From the IMG/VR virus record IMGVR_UViG_2534681940_000021: a stretch of DNA of 10,935 bases; one strand, given 5' to 3'. The number at the start of each line of letters is the position of its first letter. The stretch's first letter is position 1. A program made the position numbers. This DNA is from a virus (taxonomy: Duplodnaviria; Heunggongvirae; Uroviricota; Caudoviricetes). Shown piece after piece: positions 1-3,000 of the stretch.

Positions 1-3000
1 GTTACCGATTCCAATTCAAGTTCGTTCAGACGATGACGAAGTGTGTGTGCTGCAATCTCCTGGATTGAAGGAGGTAAATCTTTAAATTCCATCGTCAACC
101 TCATTAGTCGGAGTTTCTTGCTAACCAGCGACGCGCGCCAGCTTCAGTTTTAAACGTTTTGCTTCTGGTATACGTCATCGCGGTAAACGTGCCGTCCAGG
201 TTGGGGAATACTCCGTATACCAGAGATTCGTTGTTGCCAAGATTGAGCGTATCCATGTTGACCTCATTTCCCCTTAACGCCGGGTAGCGGAACTGTTTGC
301 TGAGAACACCGTGCGGTGTCTTGATGGGTGGTAATTTAGTTTTCTCATGAATGTTGGTCAAGTATTTTTAATGAGAAAACTCAATATTTAATGCAAAATA
401 AAGCCAATACATTGAAATGTAAGGCTTTAAAATTTGTGAAGGGGGTTACTGATGTTTGTTACGTTTGCGAGCTTCTAGTAGCTCGGTGAATAGGCGATTA
501 AAATTCTCAACGCGGGCACGGAGTTCGCTGATTTGTGCTTGCTGCTCTGATTTTGGAAGTGCGCGATACAATCGCAACATCTCCAACTCATCTTCCGATA
601 AGTCTAAGGCGCTGTTGAGTGCAACTGGTGGATCTGGTGTTTTATCCTCGTCACCAAACAGTATCCAAGTTGGTGAACATTGCAATACCTCAGCCAGGCG
701 ATGCAAATTTTGCCCGCGCGGGGCTGTATGGTCGCTTTCCCATAGTGAAATTGATGAGCCAGATACGCCAGCGGCTTTGCTTAAATCGTTTTGACTTAAA
801 CCAACCTGTTTGCGTCTTTCTCTAATTCGTTGACCTAAAGTTTTCTCGTTCATATTTAGATATCTTAATAACCCTTGACTTGAGATTCCTTGAGTGATTG
901 CTATTGAGAAAACTCAACTTTGGAGAGGTGATGTTTAAATCAGACGTAATTAATTTTTATGGGACGAAAGCCAAAGTAGCGAAAGCTGCTGGTGTTGATC
1001 CATCTGCTGTTTCTCAATGGGGGGAACTGGTTCCTGAAGGTCGCGCGATGCGCCTGCAAGAGGCATCCGGCGGGGAACTTCAGTACGACCCCAAAGTTTA
1101 TGACGAATATCGTAAGGCAAAGCGGGCGGGGCGGTTGAACAATGAAAATCACCCCTGAACAGGTTTGTGAGGCTCTGGATGCCTGGGTATGTCGACCAGG
1201 AATGACACAGGAGCAGGCGACGATATTAATCACGGAAGCATTCTGGGCTCTGAAAGAACGCCCGAACATCGATGTTCAACGCGTCACGTTTAATGATGGC
1301 GAGGTTGATCAACGGGCGCTGGGCGTTAACCGGGTGAAGATATTCGAACGCTGGAAAGCTATCGACACCAGGGATAAGCGGGAAAAATTCACGGCGCTGA
1401 TTCCGGCAATTATGGAGGCTATCCGAATTAGTGATTTCAGGTTGTATCGTGAGATCAGTGATGGAAAAAGCATTACGTACATGATCGCCGGATTAAACAA
1501 AGAATATGGCGATGTGGTGGAGTCCGGGCTGCTTTTTGCGGATCCAGCTGTTGTGGAACGTGAGACTGACGAGCTTATAGAAAAAGCTATTGCTTTCAAG
1601 CATGCGTATCGTCAGCAATATCAATATTACTTTGCAGATAAACAAATATCTGCCAGGGGTTCGTATGAGTATCGATGCACTACGATGGGCTAAAAAGGTG
1701 AAAACCGGCAGTTCATCCAGTAAGTCTGTATTGACCTGGCTTGCTGATATGTGCGGTGCCGATTTGTGTGCATACCCGTCTGTATCTGCACTGGCAGAAG
1801 TAACGGAACTGAACAAAAAGACTGTGCAGGACAGCTTACGACACCTGATGGAGATTGGGTTAATTGTTGATACCGGTGAGAGAAAAGGCAGAACAAAGCA
1901 AATTGTGGTGTACCGACTTATCGGTGTAGAAGAAAGTGTTGCCGAGCCTGAATACACCCAAAAACGGGTGTCTTTAAAGGTGGGTAAAATTGGTGCTGTT
2001 AATAAAAACAGTACCGAAAATGGTTATGTTTCAGCACAAAAGAGCCCCAAAAACGGAACTCTTTGTTGCATGGAAAATAACCAAAGACACCCAAATTTTC
2101 CATCAAAGACACCCAAAAACGGATCACGGAACCCAAAGGAACCCAAAGATCTAAACCCCACACATAACGCACGCGAGAGTGCTCCGACCAGTGAGCAGGA
2201 AGTTTTGTCGTTACAGGCAGCCCCCCATGTATTCCTGGATGGCCTGAGCGAACCCATCGGAAAATTCCCGATGAGCGATAGCTGGTATCCGTCACGGGAT
2301 TTTCGACGACGGGCTGCGTTGTGGGGGATGGCTTTGCCGGAGACAGAATTTACACCTGCTGAACTTACCGCATTCCGGGACTACTGGGCAGCGGAGGGGA
2401 AAGTGTTTACGCAGATTCAGTGGGAGCAGAAATTCGCCCGTCACGTAAATCACGTCAGGGCGCAGGTTAAACCAGTCAGCAAAGGGGTAAACCATGCAGC
2501 AGCACCAGGTGGCACCGCATCACGGGCAGTTCAGGAAATTCGGGCAGCACGTGAGCAGTGGGAACGTGAAAACGGATTTATCAGCGACGGAAACGGCCTG
2601 GAAGCTGTGGGAACTCATGGGGGAGGTTTATTCGAACCGCTGGACCCAGAAGAACGGGGCCGCACCTTCGAAGCTCTGGATTGCACAGATTGGCGCGATG
2701 ACTGAGCAGCAAATCCGGCAGGTCTGCCGCCAGTGCATGGACCGCTGCCGGGCGGGTGAAACATGGCCTCCGGACCTGGCTGAGTTTGTGGCGCTGATTT
2801 CGGAAAGCGGGGCCAATCCATTTGGCCTGACGGTGGATGCTGTGATGGAGGAGTATCGCCGCTGGCGTAATGAGTCCTGGCGATATAACGGAAGCGACAA
2901 ATATCCGTGGCCTCAGCCTGTGCTGTATCACATTTGCCTCGAGATGCGTTCAAAGGGGATTGAACGCCAGATGACCGAAGGGGAATTAAAACGGCTTGCA

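Follow-up and report, generated by a model that had tools for sequence, protein, structure and literature searches.

A repeat array within the initiator gene of an Escherichia coli lambdoid prophage as its probable replication origin

Where does replication begin in a lambdoid prophage of Escherichia coli, and does the initiator gene itself carry the site that its product reads? The question is raised by IMG/VR virus record IMGVR_UViG_2534681940_000021 (Caudoviricetes), of which a stretch of 10,935 nucleotides (nt), referred to here as the window, was analyzed; the stretch comes from an E. coli lambdoid prophage. An open reading frame (ORF) at 1665..2705 on the plus strand translates into an initiator of 346 amino acids (aa), with an N-terminal winged helix, a probably disordered linker, and a DnaT-like single-stranded DNA (ssDNA)-binding domain. 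The original prediction was that an origin-like array of iterons is embedded in this gene, in the manner of the lambda origin in gene O. From the sequence, and by analogy with lambda, we consider that the array at 1950–2150 is probably the replication origin of the prophage, of the oriλ type, and that it is read by the product of the gene in which it lies. A feature of this kind is to be expected, but it is undescribed for this widespread and poorly annotated initiator family. RefSeq names the protein only as 'DnaT-like ssDNA-binding domain-containing protein', and an origin is marked in none of the annotated records that were examined for the gene. Neither the array nor its motif, CCCAAAAACGG, is described in the literature searched, including searches for iterons with DnaT, HTH_36, phiV10, and epsilon15, a search that left most subscription journals outside.

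The heptamer ACCCAAA occurs six times in the window, against 1.95 expected, and five of the copies (at 1956, 2089, 2111, 2131, and 2141) fall within 192 nt, a clustering with a chance of about 5e-6 under uniform placement. The sixth core of the array, at 2045, is CCCCAAA, and most E. coli variants of the gene have ACCCAAA there; the claim of at least six ACCCAAA-type repeats thus holds, with five of them exact. A search of the whole window for the 16-mer AGACACCCAAAAACGG, with up to 3 mismatches allowed, gave matches at 1952, 2041, and 2107 only, each with at most 2 mismatches. The expected number is 0.10, and 0 of 200 shuffles reach 3. These matches are the three copies that had been said to carry an AAACGG extension. 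The two copies described as preceded by CAAAGAC are found as well, as exact occurrences of CAAAGACACCCAAA at 2082 and 2104.

The region 1950–2150 can be read as six copies of AAAGACACCC-AAAAAC-GG(GTGT), four of them good and two degenerate, all on the plus strand, followed by a tandem GGAACCCAAA pair. Iteron 1 (1950..1975) is the full palindromic unit, GAATACACCC-AAAAAC-GGGTGTCTTT, and shares 88% identity with the first iteron in the Edwardsiella phage EPP-1. It is a perfect palindrome, CACCC-AAAAAC-GGGTG, in which the right arm, at 1966–1975, forms a half-site of AAAGACACCC in inverted orientation. The apparent gap between iterons 1 and 2 is occupied by the two degenerate units, AAAGGTGGGTAAAATTGGTGCTGTTA (1976..2001), with flanks that match EPP-1 iteron 2 and an altered core, and ACAGTACCGAAAATGGTTATGTTT (2008..2031), which has an AAAATGG core and was aligned to an EPP-1 iteron; both have intact counterparts in EPP-1. 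Iteron 2 (2039..2064), the near-palindrome AAAGAGCCCC-AAAAAC-GGAACTCTTT, stands at the center of a 63-nt imperfect palindrome at 2021–2083 (TGGTTATGTTTCAGCACAAAAGAG ... CTCTTTGTTGCATGGAAAATAACCA) that dominates the predicted single-strand fold. Iteron 3 (2083..2101), found by the repeat search, is a left half-site with a variant center, AAAGACACCC-AAATTT-TCC, and the EPP-1 counterpart of this variant is AATTTTGG. Iteron 4 (2105..2123) is AAAGACACCC-AAAAAC-GGA and matches AGACACCCAAAAACGG with 0 mismatches. The spacings from unit start to unit start are 26, 32, 31, 44, and 22 nt. The array corresponds to codons 96–162 of the ORF, a K/P/N-rich segment between the N- and C-terminal domains that is predicted to be disordered, in agreement with the interdomain linker that had been proposed.

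Is the array peculiar to this prophage? By tblastn, the N-domain proved to have relatives in phiV10 of E. coli and in phages of Edwardsiella, Burkholderia, Acinetobacter, Vibrio, and Moraxella, and a genome scan with a 5-sequence alignment of the N-domain added 64 further loci from many genera. The loci surveyed come from Enterobacterales, Acinetobacter, Vibrio, Pseudoalteromonas, Burkholderia, Desulfovibrionaceae, and others. The locus-wide peak of exact 9-mer direct repeats starts between 120 nt before and 200 nt after the end of the N-domain in 62 of 71 loci with a relative of this domain. Therefore, the array is characteristic of the family and not special to one prophage.

The units share a design, a 5- to 6-nt arm ending in CC, an A-rich center of 4–6 nt (AAAAAC, AAATTT, AACAAT, AAAG, and others), and an inverted arm beginning with GG. 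The arms are CACCC/GGGTG in the window, EPP-1, and locus L020, ATCCC/GGGAT in phiV10 and Edno5, and GTCCC/GGGAC in Acinetobacter, Enterobacter, and Bcep176; GTACC/GGTAC, GTGCC/GGCAC, and CCCCC/GGGGG also occur in the family. Perfect inverted repeats number 4.5 per 290 nt, compared with 2.0 in control regions of the same loci, a 2.3-fold excess (p = 6e-8). Because the two arms change together and copies with only a half-site are frequent, the units are what would be expected of targets for a dimeric protein that binds duplex DNA.

The six CCCAAA cores in the window lie in all three codon phases and are read within the peptides TQKR, SPKNG, HPNF, TPKNG, NPKE, and EPKD. Two or more frames are used by the copies of 55 of the 66 arrays in the relatives, where 133 of 272 spacings are not multiples of 3, the commonest being 17, 18, 22, 24, 26, and 33 nt. 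In the comparison with EPP-1, identity at third codon positions is 43% for the N-domain, which is near saturation, and 67% for the array; iterons 1, 3, and 4 are 83–89% identical overall. Since the same core is read in three frames and synonymous positions are conserved, the constraint on the repeats acts on the DNA and not on the peptide. Within E. coli, the variants of the gene are almost identical in the array, and a selection test there is uninformative.

What protein reads the repeats? EPP-1 has an N-domain 70% identical to that of the window protein, together with six copies of the same AAAGACACCCAAAAACGG consensus, and these are the only parts that the two share. Otherwise, EPP-1 has a Phg_2220_C C-domain of the lambda O type, an unrelated upstream protein of 183 aa, and a P protein that is 27% identical. 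The converse is seen within E. coli, where about 350 further genomes match the gene only from query position 481 or 488, equivalent to 2145 or 2152 of the window, directly past the array. Located from the partial matches and example sequences, this mosaic joint, AAAGATCTAAACCCCACACATAA (2145..2167), is where initiator genes with other N-modules become homologous. Four of the partially matching genes (Rac-SA53, L074, L075, and L076) have other N-modules on the same DnaT-like C-terminal half; one N-terminus is DUF1376 (Rac-SA53), two are of a MANAWLRLWHD type, and one is of a third type. A gene of the MANAWLRLWHD type has its own repeats, five copies of GTCACGAC, just 5′ of the same joint. As judged from the E. 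coli homology breakpoint at the end of the array and from what EPP-1 shares, the N-domain and the repeats move as one module and are inherited as such. The suggestion that the repeats define a distinct initiator specificity gains support from these other N-modules, which bring quite different repeats to the same C-terminal half. In other E. coli prophages, at least three other N-modules are thus joined to this C-terminal half, the joint being seen in L074 (about 1420–1500), L076, L075, and L002 (2480–2520). Several of these modules end in short tandem repeats of (A)CAGATA ahead of the joint.

The arms also track a residue of the N-domain. Counted over distinct N-domains and ignoring their kinship, an R at the position aligned with Lys-51 goes with arms that begin with GT in 26 of 32 cases, an E or D with CCCCC arms, beginning with CC, in 7 of 7, and a K, V, or I with arms that begin with CA or TA. 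In an Enterobacter/Scandinavium clade with an N-domain 76% identical to that of the window, NKKTVQ is replaced by DRKTVL, and CACCC arms by GTCCC. This association, together with the predicted position of the residue in the fold, is suggestive of the N-domain being the reader of the iterons.

That presumed reader is encoded at 1665..1940 on the plus strand (aa 1–92), and its assignment as a winged helix comes from AlphaFold, Foldseek, and relatives that match HTH_36. The AlphaFold model has helices at residues 3–11, 17–30, 40–47, and 51–64 and a β-hairpin at 67–85, with a predicted local distance difference test score (pLDDT) mostly of 53–83 over 10-residue blocks. In this model, the recognition helix is predicted to be residues 51–64, with Lys-51 as its first residue, and the β-hairpin that follows would be the wing. 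Foldseek gives weak winged-helix matches for the N-domain model (E about 3e-3 and weaker), and one to a plasmid Rep-DNA complex, 5kbj, is weak as well (E about 3e-2). As a whole, the initiator matches the PHROG 'replication initiation protein' phrog_1032 with E = 7e-90. The folded domains are at aa 1–88 and 197–267, and the middle segment, residues 89–195, is probably disordered, as its pLDDT is below 50.

The C-domain (aa 197–267; 2253..2465, plus strand) matches Pfam DnaT (PF17948) with E = 2e-16, and its sequence matches PDB entries 6aep, 4ou6, and 9zbt with E of about 1e-17 to 1e-19. Superposed by Foldseek on the DnaT-ssDNA complex 4ou6, the model gives a template modeling (TM) score of about 0.9 and a root-mean-square deviation of less than 1 Å. 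In sequence and in predicted structure, then, clear homology links the domain to the part of DnaT that binds ssDNA. Full-length DnaT, a protein of about 179 aa with a DnaT N-terminal domain and encoded by a chromosomal replication-restart gene, has an architecture other than that of the window protein. Unlike DnaT, the window protein has 346 residues and a phage winged-helix N-terminus, and its gene is in a prophage early operon.

The tandem pair at the end of the array is probably not made up of iterons. This terminal doublet, CGGAACCcaaaGGAACCcaaag (2127..2148, plus strand), consists of C[AG]GAA[CT]C and a GAAYC about 10 nt later, and Tandem Repeats Finder reports it as 2.1 copies of GGAACCCAAA at 2128–2148. 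In the family, the last iteron is followed by C(A/G)GAA(T/C)C and, 10–13 nt farther on, by another GAA(T/C)C, and this doublet is present in 61 of 70 distinct loci compared with 20 of 408 control blocks, irrespective of the type of iteron arm. It is also read in different frames, as NG-x-[QR]-N in 44 loci and as KRD-x-ES in 15. The two tandem copies that had been counted among the iterons are indeed there, but the GGAACCCAAAG pair appears, from its distribution, to be a family-wide element separate from them. Other positions of the doublet are 2955–2985 in L001, 2469–2495 in L006, and 2807–2850 in L003. A site for integration host factor or DnaA in the doublet was considered and dropped, as by eye there is no fit to those consensus motifs. 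In E. coli 2011C_4247 (L080, 301–1331), one 10-nt GGAACCCAAA unit, equivalent to 2128–2138 of the window, is deleted; the resulting frameshift splits the gene, which RefSeq gives as a 159-aa helix-turn-helix (HTH) protein and a pseudogene. Truncated database proteins of 167–170 aa (P0002 and P0004) may have a similar cause.

How does this arrangement compare with known origins? The iterons of lambda are an experimentally proven origin (PMC7466680). In oriλ and its variants in the Shiga toxin (Stx) phages P27 and 933W, as in the window, direct repeats with dyad symmetry lie in the initiator ORF between the N- and C-terminal parts, and in lambda the loader gene P stands directly 3′ in the early right operon (PMC7466680). 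The corresponding place in the window is taken by a lambda-P-like helicase loader gene (2698..3159, plus strand; Phage_lambda_P in Pfam, E = 2e-15; PHROG 'P-like helicase loader', E = 8e-54), which RefSeq labels 'replication protein P' and which adjoins the initiator gene on its 3′ side, as expected for an oriλ-type origin. The lambda iterons lie 348 nt into gene O, and the array lies 285 nt into the initiator gene. The lambda iteron ATCCCTCAAAACGAGGGA (TCCCTC-AAAAC-GAGGGA, with a CAAATTG variant in iteron 3) and the ACACCC-AAAAAC-GGGTGT unit of the window, with its AAATTT variant, have the same design; their sequences differ, as had been claimed. Lambda has 4 tightly packed units, whereas the window has 4 good and 2 degenerate ones over about 175 nt. 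The N-terminus of lambda O is HTH_36-like by HHpred (Brezellec et al. 2017, PMC5509034), and the N-terminal parts of lambda O and of the window initiator both match, weakly, PHROGs 678 and 345, annotated 'replication initiation O-like'. The C-domains differ, as Pfam finds DnaT PF17948 in the window protein in place of the Phg_2220_C domain of lambda O, which is absent from it. The likeness to the lambda arrangement extends to gene order, domain layout, and unit design; it does not extend to lambda O membership in Pfam or to a clearly AT-rich tract beside the array. Membership of the window protein in the lambda O family is accordingly not claimed.

Other systems are similar in part. The in-gene repeats of P22 gene 18, which is grouped with gene 18 of Salmonella phage L, are among those proposed or shown as origins. 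Gene 18 of phage L has six imprecise 11-base pair (bp) repeats, TGTCCAACGGA, which are the likely origin according to Casjens and colleagues (PMC8022706). By repeat motif alone, these resemble the GTCCC-AACAAC-GG units of the Acinetobacter and Enterobacter relatives; the partner in phage L is a DnaB-type helicase (gp12), whereas that in the window is a P-like loader. Because the phage L repeats have been interpreted in the same way, reading such arrays as origins is established practice. A domesticated lambda O/P-like pair, DopC/DopE, occurs in Cellvibrionales and Oceanospirillales (PMC5509034). It too combines an HTH_36 N-terminus and a DnaT C-terminal motif with a P-like gene that follows. 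However, no iterons were found in dopC, and the chromosomal origin was placed elsewhere (PMC5509034), while the window gene has repeats; on the sequence evidence, it looks like a phage-borne, iteron-bearing counterpart of DopC/DopE. The initiators of iteron plasmids (RepA, RepE, π, and staphylococcal RepA_N) are also winged-helix proteins that act on direct repeats, but they share no sequence family with the window protein. Plasmid iterons are usually outside the rep ORF.

The proposed mechanism follows that of lambda. After induction, early rightward transcription through the cro, CII/YdaT-like, initiator, and P-like genes would yield the initiator, and dimers of its winged-helix N-domain would bind the near-palindromic iterons, (A)AAGACACCC-AAAAAC-GGGTGT, and the half-site variants in the DNA that encodes its own linker. 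With several units occupied, each of which has an A5 tract, a bent nucleoprotein complex might then form and destabilize nearby DNA of low GC content. The DnaT-like C-domain and the adjacent P-like loader would recruit the host DnaB. We infer binding, the unwinding site, helicase loading, and the start of replication at the array, and the steps after binding are drawn from lambda (PMC7466680) and from domain homology.

Several observations weigh against this assignment. The HTH_36 (PF13730) score of the window protein is 20.9 bits (E = 3.3e-4), and the Pfam cut-off is 25 bits; relatives of the N-domain score 30–49 bits, above the cut-off. Pfam Phage_rep_O (PF04492) is not matched by the window protein at E ≤ 0.01, and alignment of the N-domain with lambda O is weak, with an hhalign probability of 5% over the HTH. 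Iteron 1 alone is fully palindromic, iterons 3 and 4 being half-sites and two further units degenerate. The association of residue 51 with the arms is uncorrected for phylogeny. A structured single-strand element would likewise fit the strongly negative z-scores that the array gives on folding. Furthermore, lambda has a 40-bp AT-rich tract to the right of its iterons, whereas the GC profile of the window has no marked tract of this kind beside the array, and the DNA to the right is about 55% GC. The AT-rich stretch of the original prediction is real, since the GC content is 0.35–0.38 at 1960–2120 and 0.45–0.55 in the flanks, but it is modest. The lowest-GC stretch of the gene, at 30% GC (1969..2008), lies inside the array and is unremarkable for the window, where it is about the 11th lowest 40-mer. 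From its composition, we regard it as a candidate easy-melting stretch and not as a clear unwinding element.

The lack of a clear AT-rich unwinding tract beside the array would fit repeats that are initiator-binding sites with a mainly regulatory role (autoregulation, copy control or handcuffing, or exclusion of related phages), the origin being elsewhere in the prophage. Plasmid iterons have roles in both initiation and control. The extra iterons of Stx phages are weakly bound yet still matter (PMC7466680). We nevertheless consider a mainly regulatory array unlikely. Like the proven lambda origin, it is flanked by the two domains of the initiator and stands directly upstream of a P-like loader, and the motif has no second cluster in the window. 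A promoter and terminator scan of 800–2800 gave no matches, and hence no promoter-like site for the repeats to control, although it also missed the expected early promoter and so speaks neither for nor against internal regulatory signals. Slightly more doubtful is the proposal that the functional unit is a structured single strand, such as hairpins or a cruciform of the primosome-assembly type or an mRNA structure, and not a set of duplex sites. Here, the region 1940–2160 does fold far better than its shuffles (z = −3.8 as DNA and −5.7 as RNA), the family median is −5.1 compared with −0.6 in flanks when mononucleotide shuffles are used, the two arms co-vary as stems would, and the C-domain is a homolog of one that binds ssDNA. 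But any set of repeated palindromes gives such an excess of folding, the stems would be just 5–6 bp, and many half-sites, iterons 3 and 4 among them, have no complementary arm. Hairpins would also leave unexplained why the arms track the residue in the recognition helix.

The same co-variation of the arms with the N-domain bears on the idea that the repeats are a by-product of a repetitive peptide linker of the PKNG type, made by slippage and having no function as DNA. The linker is of low complexity and predicted to be disordered, slippage does occur, as the loss of one 10-nt unit in 2011C_4247 illustrates, and the seven copies of phiV10 are all in one frame and encode (P)KNG or ENG. However, this explanation is contradicted by the use of three frames in the window and of at least two in most of the arrays, and the palindromic units with co-varying arms, as well as synonymous positions conserved against a saturated background, make it highly improbable. 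We attach an equally slight probability to the array having arisen from, or marking a hotspot of, recombination at a mosaic joint. The homology breakpoints at 2145 and 2152 are at its 3′ edge, in favor of this reading; they are, however, outside the iterons, and the array has been kept with the N-domain across distant bacterial orders in which the flanks are entirely different. Moreover, a joint is expected at that place if the N-domain and the iterons are a functional unit.

If the array is indeed the origin and the N-domain its reader, this knowledge would allow prediction of which induced prophages can still replicate, would help to explain why lambdoid prophages in one host are incompatible in replication or exclude each other, and could provide orthogonal pairs of origin and initiator for phage-derived vectors. 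With the family pattern as a simple rule, origins could be located in the genomes of many phages and prophages; the pattern also provides a testable relationship of protein–DNA recognition. More tentatively, a general rule is conceivable, although we would not count it as likely. Initiators with an HTH_36-type N-domain, in phages of many Proteobacteria and in a Desulfovibrionaceae relative, would carry the origin in their own linker DNA, with the residue at the start of the recognition helix largely setting the specificity (R, GTxCC; E or D, CCCCC; K, V, or I, C/T-A-CCC). The GAAYC doublet after the last iteron, independent of specificity, might mark a step common to all of them, as a point of helicase loading or unwinding or as a host-factor site. 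Lambda O and oriλ could in that case have branched off and diverged from the same ancestral arrangement, and the DnaT-like C-domain might let the initiator hold the unwound strand.

The gene at 1665–2705 shares 98.8% identity with the 'phage replication protein' of PPompW prophages, which are neighbors of Stx2a phages. Of 5,426 complete E. coli genomes, 907 carry it in full length, including those of Shiga toxin-producing E. coli of O157, O145, O103, and O111. It is preceded by a cI-like repressor gene (446–853, minus strand), a P22-Cro-like gene (898–1158), and a CII/YdaT-like gene (1142–1693), and a DUF1627 gene is downstream of the P-like gene. The longest ORF that includes the P-like gene begins at ATG 2494, within the initiator gene, while the start consistent with RefSeq is ATG 2698. 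The latter gives an 8-nt overlap with the initiator stop, which suggests translational coupling.

Farther downstream, several RNA families match. Matches above the Rfam gathering score were obtained for isrK (52 bits) at 4310–4383 and for C4 antisense RNA (70 bits) at 4409–4492, which together have the arrangement of a P1/P7-type c4 immunity RNA upstream of an ORF at 4545–5093 (182 aa). A full-length match to the sok antitoxin RNA (117 bits) at 5196–5370 implies, as a sequence match, a hok/sok-type toxin–antitoxin locus within the prophage. A further full-length match is to the small RNA STnc100 (82 bits) at 10100–10274. Finally, the minus strand of 5623–6304 has two overlapping small ORFs of 123 and 105 aa, the second with an HTH-like C-terminus by eye, and the pair looks, on the same inspection, like a candidate toxin–antitoxin pair.

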